In this document: positions 3,053 to 45,902 of the stretch, piece by piece
Position numbering within the stretch: the first letter of the stretch is position 1
Layout of the letters: the number at the start of each line of letters is the position of its first letter
Assembly: GCF_024223415.1 (NCBI RefSeq)
Contig: NZ_CP100500.1
Direction: 5' to 3' (one strand)
Length of the DNA stretch: 64,000 nt
Source: Escherichia coli
GTDB taxonomy: Bacteria > Pseudomonadota > Gammaproteobacteria > Enterobacterales > Enterobacteriaceae
Translations under genes and position numbers: made by a program
The notes under the pieces: generated by a model
What the model was told of the DNA's origin: nothing
The model's database searches: none
What the model saw: the letters and a program-made list of their open reading frames with translations, nothing else

Positions 3053-4275
3053 TGGCACTGTTTTACTATCAGGCGCTGGAGCGTAATGGTCGCAAAACCA
3101 AAGGCATGATTGAGGCGGATTCCGCACGTCATGCCCGTCAGCTATTGCGCGGTAAAGATCTCATTCCTGTGCATATTGAAACGCGGATGAATGCATCGGC
3201 AGGGGGAATGTTGCAGCGTCGGCGGCACGCACATCGTCGCGTGGCGGCGGCAGATCTGGCGCTGTTCACGCGCCAGCTGGCAACGCTGGTACAGGCAGCA
3301 ATGCCGCTTGAAACCTGCTTACAGGCGGTCAGTGAGCAAAGTGAAAAACTGCATGTGAAAAGCCTCGGAATGGCGCTGCGCAGCCGGATTCAGGAAGGTT
3401 ATACCCTGTCGGACAGCCTGCGCGAACATCCCCGCGTCTTTGATTCTCTGTTTTGTTCGATGGTTGCTGCCGGAGAAAAATCCGGGCATCTCGACGTGGT
3501 GCTTAATCGCCTGGCGGATTACACCGAACAGCGACAGCGCCTGAAATCACGTCTATTGCAGGCCATGCTCTATCCGCTGGTTCTGCTGGTGGTGGCAACG
3601 GGCGTGGTCACTATTTTGCTGACGGCAGTGGTGCCGAAAATCATCGAACAGTTCGATCACCTCGGACACGCGCTGCCCGCCACCACCCGCGCGCTTATCG
3701 CCATGAGTGACGCGTTACAGGCCAGCGGCGTTTACTGGCTGGCGGGATTGCTGGCGCTTCTGGTGTTGGGGCAACGGCTACTCAAAAATCCTGCGATGCG
3801 CCTGCGCTGGGATAAAACCTTGCTGCGCCTGCCTGTGACGGGGCGTGTTGCGCGCGGGCTGAATACGGCGCGGTTTTCCCGCACATTAAGCATTCTCACC
3901 GCCAGCAGTGTTCCGCTACTGGAAGGCATTCAGACCGCTGCCGCTGTGTCGGCAAATCGCTATGTCGAGCAACAACTGCTGCTGGCGGCAGATCGCGTCC
4001 GCGAAGGAAGCAGTCTGCGCGCCGCGCTGGCGGAGTTGCGCCTGTTCCCCCCGATGATGCTGTACATGATCGCCTCCGGCGAACAGAGCGGTGAACTGGA
4101 AACCATGCTTGAACAGGCCGCAGTTAACCAGGAGCGGGAATTTGATACCCAGGTGGGGCTGGCGTTAGGGCTGTTTGAGCCGGCGCTGGTGGTGATGATG
4201 GCGGGCGTGGTGCTGTTTATCGTCATCGCCATCCTCGAGCCGATGCTGCAACTGAACAATATGGTTGGAATGTAA
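3052..4275 (+). CDS. gspF: Type II secretion inner-membrane platform protein GspF
   Basis: 407 aa polytopic membrane protein immediately after gspE; typical size and position. Confidence 0.9.
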   Translation: MALFYYQALERNGRKTKGMIEADSARHARQLLRGKDLIPVHIETRMNASAGGMLQRRRHAHRRVAAADLALFTRQLATLVQAAMPLETCLQAVSEQSEKLHVKSLGMALRSRIQEGYTLSDSLREHPRVFDSLFCSMVAAGEKSGHLDVVLNRLADYTEQRQRLKSRLLQAMLYPLVLLVVATGVVTILLTAVVPKIIEQFDHLGHALPATTRALIAMSDALQASGVYWLAGLLALLVLGQRLLKNPAMRLRWDKTLLRLPVTGRVARGLNTARFSRTLSILTASSVPLLEGIQTAAAVSANRYVEQQLLLAADRVREGSSLRAALAELRLFPPMMLYMIASGEQSGELETMLEQAAVNQEREFDTQVGLALGLFEPALVVMMAGVVLFIVIAILEPMLQLNNMVGM

Positions 4276-4291
4276 TTTACGGAGTTATCAC

Positions 4292-4747
4292 ATGAATTCG
4301 TTATCCCGCACACAAAAACCACGGGCAGGTTTTACCCTGCTGGAAGTGATGGTGGTGATTGTTATTCTTGGCGTCCTGGCAAGTCTGGTGGTGCCTAACC
4401 TGTTGGGCAATAAAGAGAAAGCGGATCGGCAAAAAGCCATCAGCGATATCGTGGCGCTGGAAAACGCACTGGATATGTACCGACTGGATAACGGGCGTTA
4501 TCCAACTACCGAGCAGGGGCTTGAGGCGCTGATCCAGCAGCCAGCCAATATGGCGGATTCCCGCAACTACCGTACCGGTGGGTACATTAAACGACTGCCA
4601 AAAGATCCGTGGGGCAATGATTATCAGTATCTCAGCCCGGGTGAAAAAGGACTGTTTGATGTTTACACCCTGGGGGCGGATGGTCAGGAAAATGGGGAAG
4701 GTGCTGGCGCAGATATCGGTAACTGGAATTTGCAGGAGTTTCAGTAA
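4292..4747 (+). CDS. gspG: Major pseudopilin GspG (ORF track start 4265; ATG at 4292 preferred)
   Basis: Prepilin-type leader plus hydrophobic N-terminus ...GFTLLEVMVVIVILGVLASLVVP; ~150 aa. Confidence 0.88.
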   Translation: MNSLSRTQKPRAGFTLLEVMVVIVILGVLASLVVPNLLGNKEKADRQKAISDIVALENALDMYRLDNGRYPTTEQGLEALIQQPANMADSRNYRTGGYIKRLPKDPWGNDYQYLSPGEKGLFDVYTLGADGQENGEGAGADIGNWNLQEFQ

Positions 4748-5314: not shown

Positions 5315-5682
5315 AGCGCGGATTTACCTTGCTGGAAGTGATGCTCGCACTGGCGATTTTTGCGCTGGCTGCCACGGCGGTGTTACAGATTGCCAGCGGT
5401 GCGCTGAGTAATCAGCACGTTCTTGAGGAGAAAACGGTAGCAGGCTGGGTGGCTGAAAACCAGACCGCGCTGCTCTACCTGATGACCCGTGAACAACGGG
5501 CGGTCAGGCATCAGGGCGAGAGCGACATGGCAGGAAACCGCTGGTACTGGCGAACCACACCGCTGAATACAGGTAACGCGCTGCTCCAGGCGGTGGATAT
5601 TGAAGTCAGCCGTCACGAAGACTTTTCGTCGGTAATTCAGTCACGACGCGCCTGGTTTAGCGCCGTGGGAGGCCAACAGTGA
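5311..5682 (+). CDS. gspI: Minor pseudopilin GspI
   Basis: N-terminal KRGFTLLEVMLALAIFALA prepilin motif; 123 aa; overlaps neighbours by 4 nt. Confidence 0.82.
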   Translation: MKRGFTLLEVMLALAIFALAATAVLQIASGALSNQHVLEEKTVAGWVAENQTALLYLMTREQRAVRHQGESDMAGNRWYWRTTPLNTGNALLQAVDIEVSRHEDFSSVIQSRRAWFSAVGGQQ

Positions 5683-6284: not shown

Positions 6285-7258
6285 TCAGCTCACCACCAAA
6301 ACGCGGAATGGCACTGGTTGTGGTGCTGGTATTACTGGCAGTTATGATGCTGGTGACTATCACGCTTTCCGGGCGGATGCAGCAACAACTTGGGCGAACC
6401 CGCAGCCAGCAGGAGTACCAGCAGGCGCTGTGGTATAGCGCCAGTGCAGAAAGTCTGGCGTTGAGCGCACTCAGTCTGAGCCTGAAAAATGAAAAGCGCG
6501 TGCATCTGGCACAGCCGTGGGCTTCCGGCCCTCGTTTTTTCCCACTGCCGCAGGGGCAAATCGCCGTCACTCTGCGTGACGCACAGACGTGCTTTAACCT
6601 GAATGTCCTCGCTCAGCCGACGACGGCGTCGCGTCCGCTCGCGTTACAACAACTGATTGCCCTGATCTCGCGCCTCGATGTGCCTGCTTATCGGGCCGAA
6701 CTGATAGCCGAAAGCCTGTGGGAGTTTATTGATGAAGACCGCAGCGTGCAGACGCGTCTGGGCCGTGAAGACAGCGAATATCTCGCCCGCTCGGTGCCTT
6801 TCTACGCCGCCAATCAACCGCTGGCCGATATCAGCGAGATGCGCGTGGTGCAGGGAATGGACGCCGGGCTTTATCAAAAACTGAAACCGCTGGTCTGTGC
6901 GCTGCCGATGACCCGCCAGCAAATCAACATCAATACTTTAGACGTCACGCAAAGTGTGATTCTTGAGGCGCTGTTTGACCCGTGGTTAAGCCCTGTTCAG
7001 GCGCGGGCGTTATTACAACAACGTCCGGCGAAGGGCTGGGAAGATGTCGATCAGTTTCTTGCACAGCCGCTACTTGCTGACGTCGATGAGCGTACTAAAA
7101 AACAGCTAAAAACCGTCCTGAGCGTGGACAGCAATTACTTCTGGCTGCGTTCAGATATCACCGTGAATGAGATTGAACTGACGATGAATTCGTTAATTGT
7201 CCGCATGGGCCCACAGCACTTTTCTGTTCTCTGGCATCAGACAGGAGAAAGTGAGTGA
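6281..7258 (+). CDS. gspK: Minor pseudopilin GspK
   Basis: 325 aa, N-terminal hydrophobic segment, operon position after gspJ. Confidence 0.8.
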   Translation: MISSPPKRGMALVVVLVLLAVMMLVTITLSGRMQQQLGRTRSQQEYQQALWYSASAESLALSALSLSLKNEKRVHLAQPWASGPRFFPLPQGQIAVTLRDAQTCFNLNVLAQPTTASRPLALQQLIALISRLDVPAYRAELIAESLWEFIDEDRSVQTRLGREDSEYLARSVPFYAANQPLADISEMRVVQGMDAGLYQKLKPLVCALPMTRQQININTLDVTQSVILEALFDPWLSPVQARALLQQRPAKGWEDVDQFLAQPLLADVDERTKKQLKTVLSVDSNYFWLRSDITVNEIELTMNSLIVRMGPQHFSVLWHQTGESE

Positions 7259-35245: not shown

Positions 35246-36064
35246 TCAGCGCAGGCTCTCCAGCAGCGTTTCTGCCATCACCCACAATGCGCGGTTGAGC
35301 CTAATGTCCGTGTCGATGCTGTGAATGGCACGGGTGTGGATACGTTTTCCTTTAGCGCTGCGACCGGAAATCCCGCCTTTCAGCATATTCTCCTGGATGG
35401 TCTGATATGCACTCCACAGGTCCTTACCGTAATCCTCCCTGCGTCGTGGCGTCAGAATGTCGGCGGTGGTGACCGGCTGATGTTCGTCACCATAACGGTA
35501 AGTCAGTGCCGCCTGTGCCAGCGCCTGACGTGCCGGTGGCGGCAGGACCAGAGACTGCATGGCATCACGCTTTTCCTCAATCCGGTCAAAAACGCCCACT
35601 ACCTCGTAAGCCCCTTCAATGACTCTGTCCACCACATTTCCCCGGTGGGGCACACGGACTTCCCCCAGAGACTGACCGCAGACGCAGCCGTTCTGGCAGA
35701 CGAATCTGAAGTAACCCGGCAGCATCTGGTAGCTGGAGGTACCGTCATGGGAGTTGAGCAGAATAATTTCAGGGACATGTTGTCCGGTTATCTCCCCGGC
35801 CCGCCGCAGACGCAGCATGTGTCTGGTGTATCCCCGGCGGCCCGGGTCGCGCACGCGGGTCTGGCAGGCGAAGAATGGCTGAAAACCTTCCCGCTGCAGG
35901 CTTTCCAGTACGGTGATGGTGGGAATGTACGCATAGCGTTCACTGCGGGAGGTATGCCGATCTTCCCCAAAAATACTGGGTACATAGTGCATCAGTTCTT
36001 CATGTGTCAGCGGACGGTCACGGCGTATCTGGTTTACATGACCAAAACGACTTGCTAATCGCAT
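35246..36064 (-). CDS. DUF932-family protein (YfjQ/YafZ-like)
   Basis: 272 aa; position and sequence pattern typical of CP4-type islands. Confidence 0.6.
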   Translation of the reverse strand: MRLASRFGHVNQIRRDRPLTHEELMHYVPSIFGEDRHTSRSERYAYIPTITVLESLQREGFQPFFACQTRVRDPGRRGYTRHMLRLRRAGEITGQHVPEIILLNSHDGTSSYQMLPGYFRFVCQNGCVCGQSLGEVRVPHRGNVVDRVIEGAYEVVGVFDRIEEKRDAMQSLVLPPPARQALAQAALTYRYGDEHQPVTTADILTPRRREDYGKDLWSAYQTIQENMLKGGISGRSAKGKRIHTRAIHSIDTDIRLNRALWVMAETLLESLR

Positions 36065-36393
36065 GATTTGCTCCTTATGAATGAGTTAGCGGTATAAATG
36101 AAAAAGCCGCGTCTCCCGGAGAAGACGCGGCCTGACCGATGAAATGAATGACGTTTATTGTCTGAGAAGCCCTTCACTGGCGAGCCACGCATTAAGTTGT
36201 TTGCCGGCATCGTATTCAAAATTCCAGCACCGCCAGCGCAACTGACATTCAGCATTGTGGATAACCAGCCGGAAATGCGTTCCCTGGTCATTTTCGATAA
36301 ACACATTGCGATAAGCTGTTGTGATGGCAACCGCCTGCTCTCGAGAGAAAGGGCCTTCGGGCAATAAAACAGGGTGACAGTCCGACATACCGG

Positions 36394-37071
36394 CTATTTT
36401 CCGATAAATTCAACGCTGGCACCGGTGGCATTACCGTCAGCACCAACCGTGACGGTCACTTTGTCGTACGCACGGTCTTCAGGATTGAACACTTCAAACT
36501 CAACCTTATTGCCTTTTACTTCGTAAGAGCCAAAATCAGCGGTTTCTGTTGTTTCCTCGTCATATTCCCGGGCGTATGCCTGCCGGGCAGCCTGCAGGAC
36601 GGAATCTTTATTAATGGCGGGTGTCTGTTTCGGGGAAAAATCGGCAAGTGATGTGACAAATTTCGGACAGACCTTCAGCATATCACCGCGGGTGAATTCC
36701 ATTCGTACACCAAATGCCTGTAAAACGGACACATCACGCTCTGCTATGGAGTGAACGGCTTTTTTGACCATTTCCGGCGCCTGTCCGACTTCCACCTCAA
36801 CAGCCCTGAATCCTGTCTGCTGATTACACATTTGTGATGTGGGGATCAGGTTACCGTTAATATTGATACGGCTGCCCAGGAGCGTCTGTACACCATTCGG
36901 GCATCCCTGCATCAGGCCGGTAATACCAATCGTGCCATTTTTCAGCATTACCAGCGCCTGACCATCTTCCGTCATGGTCTGACACCAGCCGTTTTTGACA
37001 GCCCAGTTGCCGGCGGAGGCGGAGAATGATGCCACAGTGAACAGCAGGGGAAAAAGAATTCTGGTATTCAT
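36394..37071 (-). CDS. Hypothetical exported protein (signal peptide)
   Basis: N-terminal [20 protein letters not shown] signal-like segment; 225 aa. Confidence 0.5.
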
Positions 37072-37189
37072 GACTGACCTCTGAAATTAAAGAGCGTGTT
37101 ATTGATAATGACAGACGGTATACGGCAGTGGTTACCGTAATCCGTTGTCGTGTAAAGGTATACGGTTGCCACGGGGGACTCCGGGGCGC

Positions 37190-38074
37190 TCAGAACAGGT
37201 GATCCCACAGTGTGACCAGCAGGTGGATAATGCGGTCCCGGGTTTTGCGCAGAAGCTGTAACATCCAGGCCGGAAAACTGAAACGGGCAACGGCGTCGTC
37301 AAAACTTTTCCCGATGGTTTCACCAAAAGTCTGTTGTGCGTGTTTCCGGGCCTGTTCAGAGCGGTTTTCCCCCCGGATATGTGAATAAACCGCACTGGTT
37401 GCCTGTGGTGGCAGTGCGTGGATCATCAGCGACACAAACGCCGGAAGGTTCCAGCCGACAGGTGCGGCAACGGAGAGTACCGGAAATGATGAAGGGAACA
37501 GGGTTGCCACCCGGGCTGTCACCGTCGCCAGTGAGAGCGCCTGCTGACGGGACGGGCATTTTTCTGTGTCGTTCCATTCTTCAGCAGGAAACACGCGATC
37601 GGCATGGCTGAGAACAAACAGAAAACGCGAGGGATCTGCACCTTCATTCAGTAAAAACTGATGCATGGCAATATCAGCAGCATACGCACGTTCATCAGCC
37701 CGCAGGATCCAGATAATCAGATCCAGTTCGGGCAGTAACTGACTGTAAAGTGCCCGGTATTCCTGATCATGCTGTGGTGTTTCGCCAGTGCCGGGCAGAT
37801 CGACCAGCGTCATTCTTCGTTCACCGGGCTGAAAGGTAAGACGATGAGCCTGACGGGTGCAGCCGTTCAGCGGATGCGTGGCGCAGACACGGGACTGAAA
37901 AATGGCATTGCACAGGCTGCTTTTTCCGGCACCGGATTTACCCATAATGCCAATAACGGGTTCGTACTGAATGACGCTGCGAAGATGTTCAAGGATTTTC
38001 TGGCGAATTTCTTCAGGAAGAAAGGTCAGATGTGACTTTACGTGTGCGGAGAGGGAAGAATGGCTGAATGACAT
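37190..38074 (-). CDS. GTPase of the YeeP/YkfA/YfjP family (50S ribosome-binding GTPase-like)
   Basis: G1 motif GIMGKSGAGKSSL, DLPG switch region; first gene of the CP4-like module. Confidence 0.8.
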   Translation of the reverse strand: MSFSHSSLSAHVKSHLTFLPEEIRQKILEHLRSVIQYEPVIGIMGKSGAGKSSLCNAIFQSRVCATHPLNGCTRQAHRLTFQPGERRMTLVDLPGTGETPQHDQEYRALYSQLLPELDLIIWILRADERAYAADIAMHQFLLNEGADPSRFLFVLSHADRVFPAEEWNDTEKCPSRQQALSLATVTARVATLFPSSFPVLSVAAPVGWNLPAFVSLMIHALPPQATSAVYSHIRGENRSEQARKHAQQTFGETIGKSFDDAVARFSFPAWMLQLLRKTRDRIIHLLVTLWDHLF

Positions 38075-38174
38075 ACCGTTATCCTGTTGATTTCACTGAA
38101 CCGGATCACATTAATCCGGCCTATCAGTCAGGTAATATGGACGTGAAAATTTTTCCATTGACGGGAAGAAGAGT

Positions 38175-39323
38175 ATGGCTAAAAACAAAGGTATCTGTCG
38201 GAATAAAAAATGCAGCAATCCTGTTTCAGAATTTGATGAGGCAAATGCCCTGAGGTTATGTGATGATCATTATCAGTTATGGAAACGAAATAAAGAGAAC
38301 CGTCGGGTCAGGAATATTTGTCGTATAATCAGTAAATATGACAAAAGTCTGGACCGGGAGATATTTGACAGAGTAATAGATGCTGCAAGAAATCAAACGG
38401 GAAAGAGAATTGTTGAGGACGCAAAAATATTACATCAATTGCGCAATTCAAAGCAAGTAAGAAAAAGTCTTCATAATGGAGTACTCCGGTCACGGGAATG
38501 GCTCAATACACAGGAGTTACTGAGAAGAAAAAATATATCTGTTACAGGTGACTCATTTAAATCTTACATAAAGGATATTGTCAGATTATATTGCTATAAG
38601 TTTCTCTACAGCAGAGAATATCTTAATGAAAACGCATACAAAAAACAATATCAGAGAGTTATTAACCCCAGAGAATTTAATGTTCCGATACTTCAACTTG
38701 AAGTTGCATGGATCAATAATAATTGCCGTTCAAGTGATTCAAGCTCTGATATTATCATCCTTCCCAGGATGATAAGAAGAATGGTTGTATTTAATGATAC
38801 GAAGATAAATAAACAATTAGAGGAAATGTTGGGGGGGATAGCACGAAAAAAAGTCGCAGTAAGGAATAAAGGCGGTCTCTATACCAGAATAAAAAAAGAA
38901 AATGATTTTCGTTCTATGGATAGATTTATGGTGGAAATCGAAAATATCATAAGACCTGAAATATTTCCGACATCAATTTACCCGCCTTTTTCACTTTCAT
39001 TTATCGAGAGAGAATTGCCACTACTGAATCTGGCGCACTCACAGTACAAAAGAGCAATAAGTAAAAAAGTGGCGAATTCAATTTTTTATACTTTGCGAAA
39101 AACTCACGTGGCATTATGGCTGCATCTTGAAATGTTTGCTCTTGTGGCATTCATCAAACTGTATACAGGAAAAGGGTTTGAATTCATGAAAAACATGTGT
39201 GTATTTATAGATTATGATAAAGGGATAATAAAATCCACGCATGAAGAACTGCTGAGTGAAATTAAGTGTAACATTCAGTTGAATTTAAAGGTGAATCCTG
39301 ATAATTTTCCTGAATTAATATAA
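38175..39323 (+). CDS. Hypothetical lysine-rich protein in very AT-rich DNA; N-terminal Cys/His cluster
   Basis: 382-aa ORF, N-terminus MAKNKGICRNKKCSNP...LCDDHYQLW; SD-like ggaag upstream; codon usage clearly foreign. Confidence 0.5.
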   Translation: MAKNKGICRNKKCSNPVSEFDEANALRLCDDHYQLWKRNKENRRVRNICRIISKYDKSLDREIFDRVIDAARNQTGKRIVEDAKILHQLRNSKQVRKSLHNGVLRSREWLNTQELLRRKNISVTGDSFKSYIKDIVRLYCYKFLYSREYLNENAYKKQYQRVINPREFNVPILQLEVAWINNNCRSSDSSSDIIILPRMIRRMVVFNDTKINKQLEEMLGGIARKKVAVRNKGGLYTRIKKENDFRSMDRFMVEIENIIRPEIFPTSIYPPFSLSFIERELPLLNLAHSQYKRAISKKVANSIFYTLRKTHVALWLHLEMFALVAFIKLYTGKGFEFMKNMCVFIDYDKGIIKSTHEELLSEIKCNIQLNLKVNPDNFPELI

Positions 39324-39904
39324 ATATACAATTCATGCTTTAGTAAAAATATATTGTTGTATGATGTTCAGGATGATGGTTTTAAATGGTGTTTATGATG
39401 TGAAAATATTAAATTTATATTACATTTTAATTATCGACAAAAAACACATAAAGAAATCTAAAGGGAATGAGCGTCAAATGAGCTGATATAGCGCCAGTTT
39501 GGTATGGTCATGTGATTTGATGATTAAAGCTTACGGATAATAACACTCCTCTGTGAGCCATATAAATGAGCATGCCATAATCGTCAGTTCAGAGATAAAA
39601 CTGACTGAATGATCTTATGTTATAGTAAGCAGTGTTTACCGGATACGATGACTTATCTCTCTCACATCATATGGATTCACTTTCATGGGGTAAAGCGATG
39701 GGACTACAGACGCTGATTATGATGGTTTGCTGTAAAGTTAGCACAAGTTTTTGCTGTACAGAATACGGAGTAAGAAAAATAATTCCAGAGTAAATCTGCT
39801 CTGCTTTTGAACAGAAAAGATTCATGCTTACCGTGAAAAACTGAAACCAACATTCAGTCTGCATGGATGTCTTAAGATGTTGAGAATGTCGGATATGGTA
39901 TTAT

Positions 39905-40060
39905 ATACACCTTTTCCATTAGGTCCTTTTATGTTTTCATTAAGTCGTTTTGTATGTATTCCTCCAGTGATTCATTAGTGCCTGTTTACGCATTTACACA
40001 CTTTTCCCATTAATCTCCTTTAAATGTGTTTCATTACGCATTGCTGTACACATTTTTGAA
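39905..40060. repeat. Two imperfect direct copies of a ~55-60-bp AT-rich unit
   Basis: acaccttttccattaggtccttttatgttttcattaagtcgttttgtatgtattcc vs acacacttttcccattaatctcctttaaatgtgtttcattacgcattgctgtacacattttt. Confidence 0.4.
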
Positions 40061-40981
40061 CTGATACACATCCAAGTTAGTAAACCTGTCAGTTCTGATT
40101 TTACGTTAACTAAATCAGTTTAATGCTGCTGTAAAACAATCCTTCCTGTTTAAGCAATCAATCTGCTATTCGATTTTACTGATGTGACGTTTAACCTTTC
40201 CTGAGCTTTGGTTGTTTGTGGTTTTTGGTTTGTGTTTCGACGTTAAGCTGAGAAAAGTATCTTTACGCTAAATCAACCCGAACTTTCCTGAGGTGATCTG
40301 ACGTTCTTTTCGATGTGCTTACGACGATTCTGTTAAACGACTTTCTGGATGTTTTGATAACAATCAGATTGAGGCATTAACGATTCCTGACGTTTTGCTT
40401 TTTCATGTAAGGTCATTGTTTTCGTCATGATGTGGTTTTTCTTCTTGCATTGCGAAAGTGTGATGATTGGTTTTGGTTTTTTGATTCAGATGAGATTTAC
40501 GTTATCGATGGTTAATCGTTTTTATGGTGAGTAGTGAAACGTAACATTTTCGGGATGAGAAAATCGATTCTGATGGTGATGGGGATGATCGTGTTACGGC
40601 GTTATCTGTAAACAGGTTTTAAACGTGTCATTCGCATTCGTGATTGAGTTGTGTGATTAAGCTGTAGGTTTTGGCGTTGTTGTTGATTTGCATTGCCAGG
40701 AAGCGTTCTGGTTGCGTTTCTGGTGTTTTGTTCGAATGTTCTGTGGATCCTTTTCCCTTCAGGCTTTTCTCGTCGTCCATGTCGTTTTTAAATCCATTCA
40801 TGCTGTTGTTGCGTGTTTTGCTGCTGTGTGCAGGATTATCTTTTCGTTCCGGGATGGTTTGTTCCGTTTCAATCACTCTTAATCAGAGAGTTGTAGCATT
40901 GCTTAATGACATGATGCCGTAAAGTTTTACCGCGGTGATTAATGATGTGAAGTCAATCCAAATCAACGGAGATCTCTCATC

Positions 40982-41713
40982 ATGAATCAACCAATACACA
41001 ATGCTTACTGGTTATCCCGTTTTGACAGCCTTCTCGACAGTGCCCTGTCGCAGCACCGTGCCGTCTCGTTAATCCGGGTGGATTTACGTTTCCCTGAGTA
41101 TATGCCTGTCACCATCATGGATCCCGATCCGGATTCAGCGGTGATTTCTCGTTTTTTCGAATCCCTGAAAGCCAAAATCCAGGCTTACCAGCGGAAAAAA
41201 CGACGTGCCAACAAGCGTGTGCGTGCAACCACTCTGCGTTATTTCTGGTGTCGGGAGTTTGGCAAGGAAAAAGGCAGGAAACATTATCACGTGATATTGC
41301 TGCTCAACAAAGATACCTGGTGCTCGCCAGGGGATTTCAGCGAACCATCTTCGCTGGCGACGATGATCCTGGAGGCATGGTGCAGCGCCCTGCATCTTGA
41401 GGCCTGGCAAGGCGATGGCCTGGTCCATTTTTCCAGGTGGACGCCTTCCCGTAAACCAGCATCGTCTGATGCTCGCCCTTCTTCCGATGACACGCCTTTG
41501 TCGGGTGGATGTTCTGATACCAGGAAGGCTTCAGAAAAAAAGCCGGGTGAAGCCGCTGTTCTCTGGATCAAGCGTGGTGATGTGGAAGCGCTGCAGAAAG
41601 CCCGGAACAGAGCCAGTTATCTCGTGAAATATGAGACGAAGCAGCATGACGGTTCCGGGCAACGTAATTATGGTTGCAGTCGTGGGCCGGGGCGTCTGCT
41701 GGATGGCAGGTGA
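40982..41713 (+). CDS. YagK/YfjJ-family protein (inovirus Gp2-like)
   Basis: 243 aa; ...SLIRVDLRFPEY...KHYHVILLLNKD... pattern recalled from CP4-element yagK/yfjJ genes. Confidence 0.55.
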   Translation: MNQPIHNAYWLSRFDSLLDSALSQHRAVSLIRVDLRFPEYMPVTIMDPDPDSAVISRFFESLKAKIQAYQRKKRRANKRVRATTLRYFWCREFGKEKGRKHYHVILLLNKDTWCSPGDFSEPSSLATMILEAWCSALHLEAWQGDGLVHFSRWTPSRKPASSDARPSSDDTPLSGGCSDTRKASEKKPGEAAVLWIKRGDVEALQKARNRASYLVKYETKQHDGSGQRNYGCSRGPGRLLDGR

Positions 41714-42069
41714 GCCCTGTAAAACGACATCCGGTGCCTGAGCTTATGCTACAGGACGTTGGCTGACGCCCTTAGCTCGTTTTCTGAAAAAGTCGTCCTG
41801 AAGTCATGCAACGGTATTTTTCTCTGCTTTCGCTCCTGGAAACACTCCGTCGGTAAAACCTTACTGTCCTGCTTAATGATGTGAACCGAAGTCAACGGAG
41901 ATCATTCATTCTGAACCTGCATCCGGTGTTCTGTCCCTTGTCGGTTACCTGATCTTCCCGTTCTGCCGCGGTTTTTCACTTATTCCATCAACCCCATACG
42001 CAAGCCATAACACGTCAGCGCATCCACGGGCAGGACGCGTTGTGGGCTGCGTATAACGGAACATATCTT

Positions 42070-42642
42070 ATGAATGCTATCCCTTATTTCGACTATAGCA
42101 TGGCGCCCTTCTGGCCATCTTATCAGAACAAAATCATCGGCGTTCTCAACCGTGTGTTGCGCGAGCAGTCCTGCTCCCGAATACGGCGGATCCTGCTTCG
42201 TCTGCCGGGGGAACATGGCAACATCTTCAGCGACAGAAAAACCTGGTTCGGTATGGCCTTTATCGAAACCGTCAGTGCGCTGATGAATGCAACACCCGGA
42301 CGTGACCTCTGCTGGCTCCTGACTCGTCATCCTGAAAAACCGGAATACCACGTGGTGCTGTGCGTCAGACAGGAGTATTTCGACGGCCCTGAACTGGATC
42401 GGCTGATTCTGGATGCCTGGAGCAACGTACTGGGCTTCGCGTCACCGGGTGAAGCGGCACCGTACCAGAAACAGATAACCCGGGATGTGGTGCTGGACAG
42501 TTGTTCACCGGACTGCGAAGAGAGACTCAAAGAGCTGATATGGGCGTTCAGTGATTTCGCCCGCGATCATCGTGGTGTGCGCGATCCGGAAGCCCGTTAC
42601 CTCGCCGGTAATCCCTGGTATCCCGTAGCAGGCCAGCTCTGA
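42070..42642 (+). CDS. Second YagK/YfjJ-family paralog (ORF track start 42040 is TTG; ATG 42070 preferred)
   Basis: Starts MNAIPYFDY... parallel to MNQPIHNAY... of the first paralog; ...RILLRLPGEHG...EYHVVLCVRQEY... Confidence 0.5.
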   Translation: MNAIPYFDYSMAPFWPSYQNKIIGVLNRVLREQSCSRIRRILLRLPGEHGNIFSDRKTWFGMAFIETVSALMNATPGRDLCWLLTRHPEKPEYHVVLCVRQEYFDGPELDRLILDAWSNVLGFASPGEAAPYQKQITRDVVLDSCSPDCEERLKELIWAFSDFARDHRGVRDPEARYLAGNPWYPVAGQL

Positions 42643-42710
42643 AAGCTCAGCTCAGCAGATTCACCCGCATTTGCCCAACATTCATAAATCTCACAGAGGA
42701 CATTCTGACC

Positions 42711-42947
42711 ATGTTGACCTCAATGACAGGTCACGACAGCGTATTGCTGCGTGCCGACGATCCCCTGATCGACATGAACTACATCACCAGCTTCACTGGT
42801 ATGACCGACAAATGGTTTTACAAGCTGATCAGTGAAGGCCATTTCCCTAAACCCATCAAACTGGGGCGCAGCAGCCGCTGGTACAAAAGTGAAGTGGAGC
42901 AGTGGATGCAGCAACGAATCGAGGCATCACGAGGGGCAGCAGCATGA
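42711..42947 (+). CDS. alpA: AlpA-family prophage regulatory protein (HTH)
   Basis: 78 aa; ...LIDMNYITSFTGMTDKWFYKLISEGHFPKPIKLGRSSRWYKSEVEQWM typical AlpA. Confidence 0.8.
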   Translation: MLTSMTGHDSVLLRADDPLIDMNYITSFTGMTDKWFYKLISEGHFPKPIKLGRSSRWYKSEVEQWMQQRIEASRGAAA

Positions 42948-43060
42948 AACGTGTTGTAATGCCGGTACGCTGGCAATGTGCAAAATACCAGCGTTGGTAT
43001 TGTGGAAGCCGGCCCTGTCCCTGGTGCTGGCGACACTCCCGCTCATCTTTCTGCTGACAC
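42944..43060 (+). CDS. Candidate 38-codon Cys/Trp-rich small ORF translationally coupled to alpA
   Basis: ATG overlaps alpA stop (ATGA); translation MKRVVMPVRWQCAKYQRWYCGSRPCPWCWRHSRSSFC; below ORF-track size cutoff. Confidence 0.3.
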
Positions 43061-44882
43061 CCTCTGGTCAGCCAGCGGACTATCGTCCTTTCCTGACCGA
43101 TTCGTCATTCCATTCTTATTGATTATAACTGGCATTACACCGGTGCCGGCGTGCTTTTCTGTAGATCTGCACCGGTTTAACAAAATTCGACAAGGTTTGA
43201 AGGAGTATTCTGTGCAAATAAGCGAGGCCCTAATTTCAGAACCGGGGAAAATCCAGCGTTTTGTTCAGCAGGCGGTGGACCACTAGCCGCGTCTGCTGGC
43301 AGTCCACTTCACGCTTGATTCGGCTGAAGGGAATATTGACGAGGGGCAGATTCATGCATTCTGTACTGCCTTTTACCGACAGGTGCACGAGCGTATTACT
43401 GAACGTAATCACACGGCCAGCCCATCCTCGCCGGTGGTATTACGCTGGTTGCGGGAACAACATGGAGGAGCAACAATACGATGCCTGTTGCTGTTCAGCC
43501 AGGAGCTTTTCTGCCATCCGCGAGCCAGTGTGACAGTTGATGAAGAATGTTCACAACTGGTGGATTTACTACAACAGACTTGGCAGGTGATAAGCGCTGG
43601 CGGACAATGCCGGGTGGAAAAGCGTTTTCAGGTCGTCCGGGGTGATACATCTGGCCAGTATGTTGCGTTAAAAACAGTCGCATTGTCTCTGGGGTTACCG
43701 GTTGTGATCGCCATTACCCATCGTCCGGTACAGCGCTGTACATTGATTACAGCTCAGTGAATCAGCGCAGTTGTGCAGTCAACGAGGTTTTCTGGCTTTT
43801 CGTCGGTCATTCAGCATCATTAAACGGGTCTCTGCCTCTTTCTGTTCCTGTGGTGTCACTTCCCCGCACGGCTGACCGTTCAGGTTGTAACGGGCGCCAC
43901 CTGCTATTAACGCACGGTAATAGCGCGGAGACTGCACATAAGACGCCACTGCTGCATGTAATGTACCAGCGCCAAACGCCAGTTCTCGGATGGCGATATC
44001 CTGTATCAGGTCGTCAGGTATCCCCACTTTAAGTGGTTTTGTTTTTTTCCCGGTTGAATGACTCAGGCCAGAGTTCCACAAGACGAATAATGCGCTTACG
44101 GTTTTTGCTCTGGCGTTTTGTCATGTCGCCACGGTGTTTTATCAGCAGGTTTCTGTTTATCGTTCAACTGTGGTATCTGGTCACCGGCCTTCATTTTGTA
44201 TGCTGTGTCCGTTTTATTCTGCAGCGGCGTTGCCGGTGATTTACTGAAAATACCCTGCGGTTTACGGTTAATGGTCAGAGTTACCATCAATTTTGTTACC
44301 TCGCGCTGTCAATGGAAGTAGTACCTCATCCGATATCTGAAAATGTTTTCCGGTGGATGTTACAGCGAATTTCATGTAAGACATGTTGTTGTCGGTATTG
44401 TTCAGTACTGTGCGTTGTGAGCGTATTCGTTATCAGACAGAGGGGCAGGGAACAAACGTCAGAGGTTAAGGATATCCGGGAACAAATGGCGTAAACGGAC
44501 ATCTCAGTGCCTGAGAAACAGTACAGGTCAGGCCATCATGGCCTGCAAACAGAGCCCTGGCGACCCCGTGGCCGAAAACGAAACAATAACCCGCGCGCAG
44601 TGCGAGGAATCCGGATGTGAAGCAATCAGCAGGTAATATTAATGGCAGGACCAGCAGGTTCTTTAAACAAACGAACATGCTGTAATTGATATTTTGCTTA
44701 TTGTATTTTCTTTTTAGTTATTAAATTAATTTATTTACGAAAAATTTTCTGCAGATACAGGATGGGAATTCAGGGTGTCATCACGCCTTATGATGACACC
44801 CTTCCCCTGGTTGTGGAAAACCGAAGGATATATCAGGTTCAGCAACAAAATCAGTGAGCTGAAAGATACCAGTCCCCCAGCT

Positions 44883-45902
44883 TCAGCAGCTTTCACGTAA
44901 ACATAAACAGGGCTCAATGAATATCTGATTGCTCCAGTTACCTTCTTTAATTCGTTCCAGCAAAACATTTCCTGCTTCCAGACCAATTTTCCTGTGAGGA
45001 ACGGCCATTGTTGTTAATGATGGTTGGCAAACTTTGCTGACGTCACTGTCACCAAATCCTACTACGGCGAGCTCGTCTGGAACTTTGATCCGTCTTCGTT
45101 GACATTCATAGAGAACACCGCAGGCTAACTCATCTGACACACATACCAGGGCATCCAGTTCCGGCCATGCGAGCAAAAATTCCGGTAGTTGTGATGCTCC
45201 GGTGGAAAAAACAGGTGGCAGAGCAGCGTTAATAACACGGTTGGGAGACATATGATGGCGTAACATAGCTTTATACCATCCCTGTAAATGCTGCTGAAAG
45301 ATCCACTGTTCCTGGTTAGCGCATAGCAAACCGATATTCTGATAACCACGTTGTACCAGCATATCCGTCAGCTCGAACATTGCTGCAACATTATCAATAC
45401 CAATGTTGATATCTATCGGATCAGTACGAATGGCACCGATTTCTATAACAGGAATCGAGGCATTTTTGAGCAAGTGACGCACGGTACTATTATGCTCAAC
45501 ACTAAGCAAAATTGCTGCAGCGATATTAGAAGCCAGCAGGGTTTCCAGCAGTTTTTCTTCTTGTTCCAGACGATGGCGTGACTCAGCCAGGATTATTTGA
45601 TACCCCGCTGGTTGTAGCACATGTTGCAGCCCGGCAAACATTTCCGTGCATCCCGCTTCAGCCAGGTTTGGCACGACCATTGCGATCGTGTGTGAAGATG
45701 CCGATGCCAGTGCGCTTGCAGTGAGGTTGGGCATATACCCTAATTCATTAACTGCGGCTTCAATCTTCTCCCGCAATTTATCTGAAACTTGTTCGGGAGT
45801 GCGTAACGCTCTGGATACAGTCATTGTGCCAACTCCCGCGAGTTGCGCGACATCAGCAATAGTGACTTTACCTGTACTACGACGTTTTCGGGTTATTGCC
45901 AT
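44883..45902 (-). CDS. LacI-family transcriptional regulator
   Basis: N-terminal HTH VTIADVAQLAGVGTMTVSRAL plus periplasmic-binding-like sugar-binding domain; divergent from the PTS operon. Confidence 0.8.
   Translation of the reverse strand: MAITRKRRSTGKVTIADVAQLAGVGTMTVSRALRTPEQVSDKLREKIEAAVNELGYMPNLTASALASASSHTIAMVVPNLAEAGCTEMFAGLQHVLQPAGYQIILAESRHRLEQEEKLLETLLASNIAAAILLSVEHNSTVRHLLKNASIPVIEIGAIRTDPIDINIGIDNVAAMFELTDMLVQRGYQNIGLLCANQEQWIFQQHLQGWYKAMLRHHMSPNRVINAALPPVFSTGASQLPEFLLAWPELDALVCVSDELACGVLYECQRRRIKVPDELAVVGFGDSDVSKVCQPSLTTMAVPHRKIGLEAGNVLLERIKEGNWSNQIFIEPCLCLRESC

Follow-up and report, generated by a model that had tools for sequence, protein, structure and literature searches.

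The window analysed here comprises 64,000 nucleotides of Escherichia coli DNA (NCBI RefSeq assembly GCF_024223415.1, contig NZ_CP100500.1; the stretch matches the E. coli chromosome NZ_CM196105 exactly) and carries an island in the chromosome, adjoining setC/yicL. In this island, a gene of the Gp2/YagK-YfjJ family is preceded on the same strand by two short conserved sequences, Box 1 and Box 2, and by an array of short repeated motifs that starts at Box 2. The two-box module marks Gp2/YagK-YfjJ genes across Enterobacterales and is apparently undescribed. We favour, with moderate confidence, a reading in which Box 2 serves as the promoter of the operon and contains a factor site, the repeats being operator iterons.

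The Box 1/Box 2 module and its repeat array

Box 1 (TAATTCCAGAGT; 39780-39791, + strand; family consensus TAAyWyCAGAGT) and the 19-bp Box 2 (TGTCGGATATGGTATTATA; 39887-39905, + strand; consensus TGTyKG-N2-4-rGTAWTATA) are each unique in the 64-kb window. They are separated by a spacer of 95 nt (39792-39886, + strand), which is not conserved in sequence and contains a -35-like TTGAGA at 39880-39885. The module was traced from Box 2 in Providencia, whose Gp2 protein has just 39% identity, via protein-anchored loci from Brenneria, Providencia, uncultured Enterobacterales, IMG/VR contigs and both K-12 paralogues, yagK and yfjJ. All share one architecture, in which Box 1, a non-conserved spacer, Box 2 and lineage-specific repeats are followed by a Gp2 gene on the same strand. 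Both boxes are kept upstream of Gp2 genes whose products are just 30-50% identical; for Box 1 this holds in Providencia, Brenneria, K-12 yfjJ and yagK, and viral and metagenome loci. The information-content profile of Box 2 delimits a conserved block of 19-20 nt.

A search for the degenerate two-box pattern found 43 sites in metagenomes. In 36 of them a Gp2-family open reading frame (ORF) follows immediately, in the same orientation. Contig ends truncate five of the remaining seven, and another is an apparent chance match. The module always stands ahead of Gp2, even where alpA, the gene of an AlpA-type excisionase, lies upstream of Gp2 (locus L025 and K-12 CP4-57). An AlpA gene stands beside Gp2 in 26 of the 32 metagenome loci that have room for alpA or carry one. 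Across lineages Box 2 is usually ~60-580 nt from the Gp2 ORF, in most cases ~150-250 nt. The K-12 modules are compact, with Box 2 58 nt (yfjJ) and ~180 nt (yagK) from the ATG. The module in the yfjI-yfjJ spacer lies at 5420-5492 of locus L032; that in the yagL-yagK spacer (7127-7208 of locus L080) has a perfect 10-bp inverted repeat (TACTCTTACT...AGTAAGAGTA) and no direct repeats after Box 2.

Spacer lengths fall into classes of 40, 51, 71-75, 80-87 and 95 nt across lineages, and the distances between Box 1 and Box 2 cluster at 52, 60-63, 83-87, 92-99 and 107 nt with a periodicity of ~10.5-11.5 bp. Among 36 non-redundant modules, whose lineages are not independent, the Rayleigh R for this phasing was 0.62-0.67 (p 0.01-0.06 on distinct values only). 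Since the distance classes are about one helical turn apart, they point to a double-stranded DNA-protein complex, and the phasing is suggestive of proteins on one face of the duplex. A binding site for IHF in the spacer was considered and rejected, the consensus being present in only one of the 36 modules.

The short-motif array (39906-40083, + strand) contains the two units described in the initial annotation, 39907-39962 and 39994-40056. The repeats are present at these positions; their best local alignment pairs 39907-39942 with 39998-40036 over ~37-40 nt with three 1-nt gaps. The two units align with a score of 32, compared with 15.5 +/- 2.7 for dinucleotide shuffles, none of which reached it in 2000 trials. 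As a region-wide control for a pair picked by hand, we compared all 70-nt tile pairs lying <=300 nt apart in 39330-40980. The top pair was the same repeats (39890/39995), with a score of 34 against 23.1 +/- 2.4 and one of 300 shuffles reaching it. The repeats are modestly but clearly above chance. Of the units of 55-60 bp that had been proposed, the similarity stands but only ~40 nt align; the units are shorter and more composite than that, because each combines one TACAC with two TTYCATTA motifs downstream of it. The region showed no significant periodicity over long range. Specifically, the idea that the whole 1 kb consists of decayed ~88-nt repeats was rejected, since the bump in the lag spectrum at 83-92 (z ~3.2) stays below the 95th percentile of the shuffles (4.6).

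The sub-motifs named in that annotation do cluster, with T[CT][CA]ATTA at 39915, 39936, 39971 and 40030; a variant at ~40005 brings the TTYCATTA-type motifs to four or five in all. Copies of TACAC start at 39906, 39995, 40047 and 40065, the first of them within or abutting Box 2. All copies of both motifs are on the + strand and none on the - strand, within 191 nt, and four copies in 191 nt occurred in none of 1000 shuffles for either motif. The array motifs were picked after inspection; TACAC, however, was derived from the relatives of the window.

Each of the ten related E. coli-type loci carries a same-strand motif array in the corresponding position, between about -1070 and -860 relative to the ATG, with varying copy number and unit sequence. 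Most of these arrays (L002-L010) are built of TACAC(R)T and TTTTACTAAG-type units 12-13 nt apart, and whole units have been gained or lost between E. coli islands. Among the other lineages, conspicuous arrays after Box 2 are found in L030, with about seven copies, in L069, with a tandem 9-nt unit visible three times, and in L065, where the 3' half of Box 2 itself is present in three copies. Significant ungapped direct repeats (p<=0.05) follow Box 2 in 8 of 33 lineages and precede Box 1 in 3 of 32. The proposed link between a binding-site array and the YagK/YfjJ gene is supported by this comparison across loci, the array always abutting Box 2, which in turn accompanies Gp2-family genes.

We regard it as unlikely that the repeats have no sequence-specific role today and are a neutral remnant, left by an old local duplication or by slippage in the AT-rich, H-NS-silenced spacer of an island in decay, so that Box 2 and the region proximal to the gene alone would be of importance. 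Such a remnant would fit the approximately synonymous rate of divergence of the region and its frequent indels, the modest region-wide significance of the repeats (1/300), the weak constraint on Gp2 genes, which are often pseudogenes, and the listing of H-NS at the K-12 yagK spacer; likewise, the array of the window is more degenerate than those of its relatives. In Shewanella, the alpA promoter of CP4So is silenced by H-NS (PMC5148205). All E. coli-type loci nevertheless have arrays in this position and orientation, among which whole units have been gained and lost; the unrelated lineages L030, L069 and L065 carry arrays right after Box 2 independently, and the first TACAC touches or enters Box 2. 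The window copy is degenerate and may be decaying along with its island, and the frequency of pseudogenes among Gp2 genes suggests that the array here may have fallen out of use.

Candidate roles: promoter-operator or replication origin

The Gp2/YagK-YfjJ family gene of the window (40982-41713, + strand; PF11726/PF23343) encodes a protein with the motifs HYHVILLL and YLVKYETK. Across the family Gp2 keeps the HUH motif (HYHVILLL) and the tyrosine of YLxK, and by these motifs and its predicted fold (predicted local distance difference test, pLDDT, 78) it models as an HUH nickase. An origin- or regulator-binding array, as suggested in the initial annotation, was a sensible pair of options because of this neighbour; iterons of the theta type do not fit, and an experimental hint, the binding of RNA polymerase selected in vitro at yagK, speaks for a promoter/operator rather than an origin. 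We consider a theta-type iteron origin (oriV) served by a RepA-like initiator extremely improbable. Direct repeats do lie in AT-rich DNA beside a gene annotated as replication-related, but the units of 5-12 nt at irregular spacings of 21-36 nt are not phased iterons of 17-22 bp, the neighbouring protein is by predicted fold an HUH nickase and not a winged-helix Rep, and the matches in the plasmid collection are only fragments of E. coli islands carried on plasmids.

In the favoured promoter/operator reading, Box 1, the helically phased spacer, Box 2 and the repeats would form the cis-control module of an operon encoding the HUH nickase, its paralogue and AlpA. Box 2 would be a sigma-70 promoter, read as TTGAGA-16-TATATA with the -10 at 39902-39907, and its spacer site TGTCGG...GGTA would be recognised by a conserved island protein. 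AlpA is the leading candidate because it is the most conserved partner; it is far more conserved than Gp2 across lineages, which parallels the conserved boxes as against the variable repeats. The repeats of the window would be a local and partly decayed form of an array of short putative protein-binding motifs that begins inside Box 2 and runs ~170 bp downstream. Its TACAC/CATTA iterons would overlap the -10 and the initially transcribed region, to about +170, and serve as operators for a lineage-specific DNA-binding protein. Most plausibly this would be the HUH protein or its paralogue, since initiators of the HUH class commonly recognise direct repeats adjacent to the gene that encodes them. 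Iteron occupancy would set the expression of Gp2 and AlpA and, via AlpA, the excision of the island. The transcription start, the binding proteins and the regulatory outcome are those that we infer.

This reading draws on the composition of Box 2, in which the -10-like TAWTAT/TATA is invariant and is preceded in about half of the lineages by TGG, as in an extended -10. Genomic SELEX (systematic evolution of ligands by exponential enrichment) placed a constitutive promoter of the RpoD holoenzyme, TTTAGA-16-TATAAT, together with H-NS in the yagL-yagK spacer (Shimada et al. 2014, PMC3946193). This promoter overlaps Box 2 of K-12 yagK, so the RNA-polymerase support pertains to the K-12 paralogue and not to this island. 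At yfjJ there is little room for another promoter, because Box 2 is only ~58 nt from the ATG.

Several observations weigh against a promoter with operators. The information-content profile contains no -35 hexamer conserved family-wide, and Box 2 was missed by the promoter scan, there being no T at position 6 of TATATA. In this island type Box 2 is ~1.07 kb from the ATG, an outlier among the lineages; terminator-like hairpins lie between the two, the bulk of the intervening region diverges at about the rate of synonymous sites, and the highly conserved proximal region (40902-40981) could hold the real promoter. The array of the window is irregularly spaced (21-36 nt) and degenerate, three quarters of the lineages have no significant direct repeat after Box 2, and Gp2 genes of this island type often contain internal stops (e.g. 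L007, L008).

A possible alternative, to which we give clearly less credence, is that the module serves primarily as a rolling-circle origin (double-strand origin, dso) or as an origin of transfer (oriT), with Box 2 as the nick core, the iterons as bind sites and Box 1 as the site of an accessory protein. After excision by AlpA and the integrase, the island circle would be replicated or mobilised from the module, and promoter activity would be secondary or overlapping, the latter being the case in many Rep systems. A fuller and slightly more doubtful version is an origin of unrecognised HUH-driven replication or mobilisation, in which AlpA triggers excision and may assemble on the boxes and Gp2 nicks Box 2. 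The cognate HUH protein would be encoded right beside the module, its motif and catalytic tyrosine being conserved and its predicted fold that of an HUH nickase, and the module is strictly linked to this gene and not to alpA. A conserved core of 19-20 nt with lineage-specific repeats adjacent to it is the classic nick-plus-bind pattern, and an insertion between module and gene as long as that found here would be harmless to an origin. The 5' half of Box 2 (GTCGGATA, GTTGGATA) resembles CTTGATA, which occurs exactly in K-12 yfjJ. In the phage Ff, the intergenic region lies upstream of gene II, and the layout of the module parallels this region as well as that of pMV158. CTTGATA is the nick site of initiators of the Rep_1/pC194 type (PMC10378824); the nic and bind loci of pMV158 are 84 bp apart (PMC1851628).

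Other evidence speaks against an origin. No hairpin was found between the boxes or at or around Box 2 when single-stranded DNA of the window from 39775 to 39915 was folded (z -0.68), and inverted repeats are not enriched after Box 2 (5 of 34 lineages, compared with 10 of 34 upstream). The Gp2 family is not Rep_1, and the resemblance to CTTGATA extends over merely 7 nt. RNA polymerase on its own binds the yagK spacer of K-12, and the -10-like hexamer is the most invariant part of Box 2. Neither replication nor transfer by the Gp2/YagK-YfjJ family is reported in the literature searched, which describes no function for the family at all. Finally, the phage collection, including its filamentous phages, yielded no DNA match, and its sole protein homologue is encoded on an unverified 4.5-kb contig. 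Direct repeats that an initiator might bind lie beside the core here and in all E. coli-type loci and are significant in only 8 of the 33 lineages, which points neither way. The promoter and origin roles are not exclusive, because Rep proteins often autoregulate at their own origins.

The contig concerned (locus L081, OR844780.1, 'Escherichia phage ECO111 5-P', 4468 bp) is an unverified, low-coverage contig from a phage preparation. Upstream of its Gp2 homologue there are just GC-rich, degenerate box-like sequences, and it may represent packaged or contaminating island DNA.

Genes and non-coding DNA around the module

The YfjP-like GTPase gene (37190-38074, - strand) heads the usual leftward block of helix-turn-helix, DUF932, antirestriction, RadC/JAB and CbtA/YeeU genes. 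Next to it lies a cargo gene (38175-39323, + strand) for a protein of 382 amino acids (aa), which has no match in Pfam, NCBIfam, PHROG or PADLOC. The slot between the GTPase gene and Box 1 holds unrelated genes in each island (window, L002-L011, L016, L018), either one alone (376-407 aa) or two convergent ones (~310-330 and ~262-284 aa), and is a likely cargo hotspot. Within the flagged span, 39330-39776 varies with the cargo and is not conserved. Of 5426 complete E. coli genomes, 1877 carry the right-hand 1.2 kb, from ~39777 to the ATG, with identities of 76-100%.

The 1.66 kb between the cargo gene and the Gp2 gene contain no credible gene. Its description as AT-rich holds (GC content 0.26-0.44), and that as ORF-free holds in substance, although small ORFs occur, including an annotated one of 82 aa on the - strand (40628-40876; RefSeq hypothetical protein WP_000573215.1). 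Conservation and codon pattern were analysed in 13 aligned copies. Third positions are the most conserved ones in the 82-aa ORF, and it was rejected as a real gene for want of a codon-position signal and because the surrounding indels are not multiples of three; on the same grounds WP_000573215.1 is probably a spurious gene call. A pseudogene of another - strand gene was also considered and rejected: in L011 a 176-aa gene takes the place of most of the region, and tblastn detected nothing similar to it in the window or in the related loci.

Gp2 itself shows identities of 0.932, 0.962 and 0.897 at its three codon positions, corresponding to weak purifying selection. The bulk of the non-coding region has pairwise identities of 0.75-0.92, compared with the 0.897 at Gp2 third codon positions, with local conservation maxima at 39852-39950, 40452-40550 and 40902-40981; indels are frequent and not multiples of three, and a codon pattern is absent. 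The T-rich ORF-free spacer (40084-40901, + strand) is specific to E. coli-type islands, has a mean pairwise identity of 0.76-0.92 and includes the two terminator-like hairpins, at 40699-40731 and 40799-40825 on the + strand. A scan of 36000-45000 against Rfam gave no match at E<=1, and RNA folds on both strands (z -2.3 to +1.6; -2.0 to +1.6 for the T-rich spacer) were no more stable than those of shuffles. Given identity at the level of third positions, non-triplet indels, the blank Rfam scan and unremarkable folds, the ~0.85 kb that separates the array from the proximal region is non-coding, unstructured and near-neutral.

These results bear on the notion that the region acts as RNA, as a long structured 5' leader or a non-coding RNA whose U-rich motifs bind, for instance, the ProQ/FinO-family protein of the island, which we consider very improbable. 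The array and ~1 kb would indeed be transcribed if Box 2 is the promoter, the leader would contain the terminator-like hairpins, and a ProQ/FinO-family gene is present in the island, albeit as a pseudogene here. A structured RNA is weakly refuted by the Rfam scan, the fold z-scores and the near-neutral divergence with its many indels. Moreover, the helical phasing of Box 1 and Box 2 points to double-stranded DNA, and most lineages have only ~150-250 nt between Box 2 and the gene.

The proximal upstream region (40902-40981, + strand; identity 0.91-0.985) includes TTAATGATGTGAA (40939-40951) and the ribosome-binding region. An ATGTGA-type motif, (A)TGATGTGAA or AAGATGTGA, recurs 30-45 nt upstream of Gp2 starts in E. 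coli and Providencia. Copies lie at 40939-40951, 39392-39404 and 40176-40190 of the window, at 3830-3842, 3892-3904 and 4037-4049 of L014, and at 3716-3726 and 3892-3902 of L012. The copy at 40939-40951 lies in the most conserved stretch upstream of the gene and may be a second, proximal regulatory site. Further upstream, 40350-40700 is asymmetric between the strands (GC skew +0.25 to +0.49, AT skew to -0.54). Its predicted - strand transcript is C-rich, G-poor and almost unstructured, with a minimum free energy of ~-11 kcal/mol per 150 nt; in composition it resembles a Rho-utilisation site, which could insulate the cargo/GTPase side from antisense transcription. Within the same interval, L005 carries a (TGATGG)n hexanucleotide microsatellite (~4560-4600) with 36 extra bases relative to 40573-40596 of the window.

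Downstream of Gp2 follows a gene for a 190-aa protein (42070-42642, + strand). Of the two YagK/YfjJ-type genes initially annotated, that at 40982-41713 belongs to the family, and this second one is at best a remote paralogue. The 190-aa protein has no match in Pfam, NCBIfam, PHROG or PADLOC. Its alignment with the Gp2 alignment by hhalign (probability 57%, E 1e-4) superimposes the motifs RILLRLP and RVDLRFP, EYHVVL and HYHVIL, AWSNVL and AWCSAL, and ARYLAG and ASYLVK, listed with the 190-aa protein first. The protein is thus a probable remote Gp2 paralogue without the first histidine of the HUH motif, and owing to this loss it may be a non-catalytic DNA-binding partner. The E. coli Gp2 subfamily has a low-complexity insert of ~40 aa rich in Ser, Pro and Asp (residues ~155-190, pLDDT <50), which is missing in other genera.

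The AlpA-type excisionase/regulator gene (42711-42947, + strand; PF05930 at 2e-10) encodes a winged-helix protein of 78 aa, whose relatives among PDB sequences are an AlpA family protein (8c3t), TorI and RdfS. Homology to the Q-like AlpA antiterminator of P. aeruginosa was considered and rejected, there being no match to those chains in the PDB sequence set.

Implications and comparison with known systems

Genes of the YagK/YfjJ ('inovirus Gp2') family occur commonly in the islands of enterobacteria, and roughly one in three complete E. coli genomes contains the upstream region described here. A module tied to the gene and to the AlpA excisionase provides a concrete handle on the family, with defined sites of 12 bp and 19 bp. 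If the promoter/operator reading is true, the module is a point at which the excision of numerous islands, for pathogenicity as well as defence, may be controlled. An origin, in turn, would explain the persistence or movement of excised islands that have no recognisable genes for replication or transfer, and 'cryptic prophage' islands like CP4-57 and CP4-6 could replicate or transfer as circles. Both candidate kinds of element, promoter-operator and HUH origin, are known as such; the literature searched contains no description of this module or of its association with an HUH-AlpA gene pair.

Promoters with a factor element between -35 and -10 are known for lambda Q and Pseudomonas AlpA (PMC7969949, PMC9371919). 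The spacer element GGGACG-N5-GGTA of the Q and P. aeruginosa AlpA promoters (PMC7969949) resembles TGTCGG...GGTA of Box 2 weakly. Shared with these antitermination promoters are -10-like repeats after the start in some lineages and, here, terminator-like hairpins in a long leader. The Q-like antiterminator that a promoter of this type requires is, however, not supported by sequence, the AlpA of the window being of the 78-aa excisionase type.

In KplE1, arrays of short sites for TorI and IntS overlap the PintS promoter in attL (PMC2951348). The proposed module would similarly place short repeated sites over a promoter of recombination functions, and the AlpA of the window is related to TorI and RdfS. 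Unlike the KplE1 arrangement, the module is internal to the island and not at an att site, its motif is unrelated to the GTTCG of TorI, and the gene to which it is linked encodes the HUH protein, as opposed to Int or AlpA.

HUH rolling-circle origins, such as those of pMV158, pC194/Rep_1 and Ff and the Rep-binding repeats of adeno-associated virus and other parvoviruses, share with the module an HUH gene directly downstream, repeats beside the core, a conserved core with lineage-specific repeats, and the likeness to CTTGATA. In contrast to these origins, the module has no hairpin at its putative nick site and lies in a large integrated island instead of a small replicon; its protein family (PF11726/PF23343) has no helicase or other domain, and nicking is putative here.

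The closest counterparts are the regions upstream of K-12 yagK (CP4-6) and yfjJ (CP4-57). Unlike the window, their modules are compact and free of the TACAC/CATTA array, while the same Box 1 and Box 2 precede paralogous genes.

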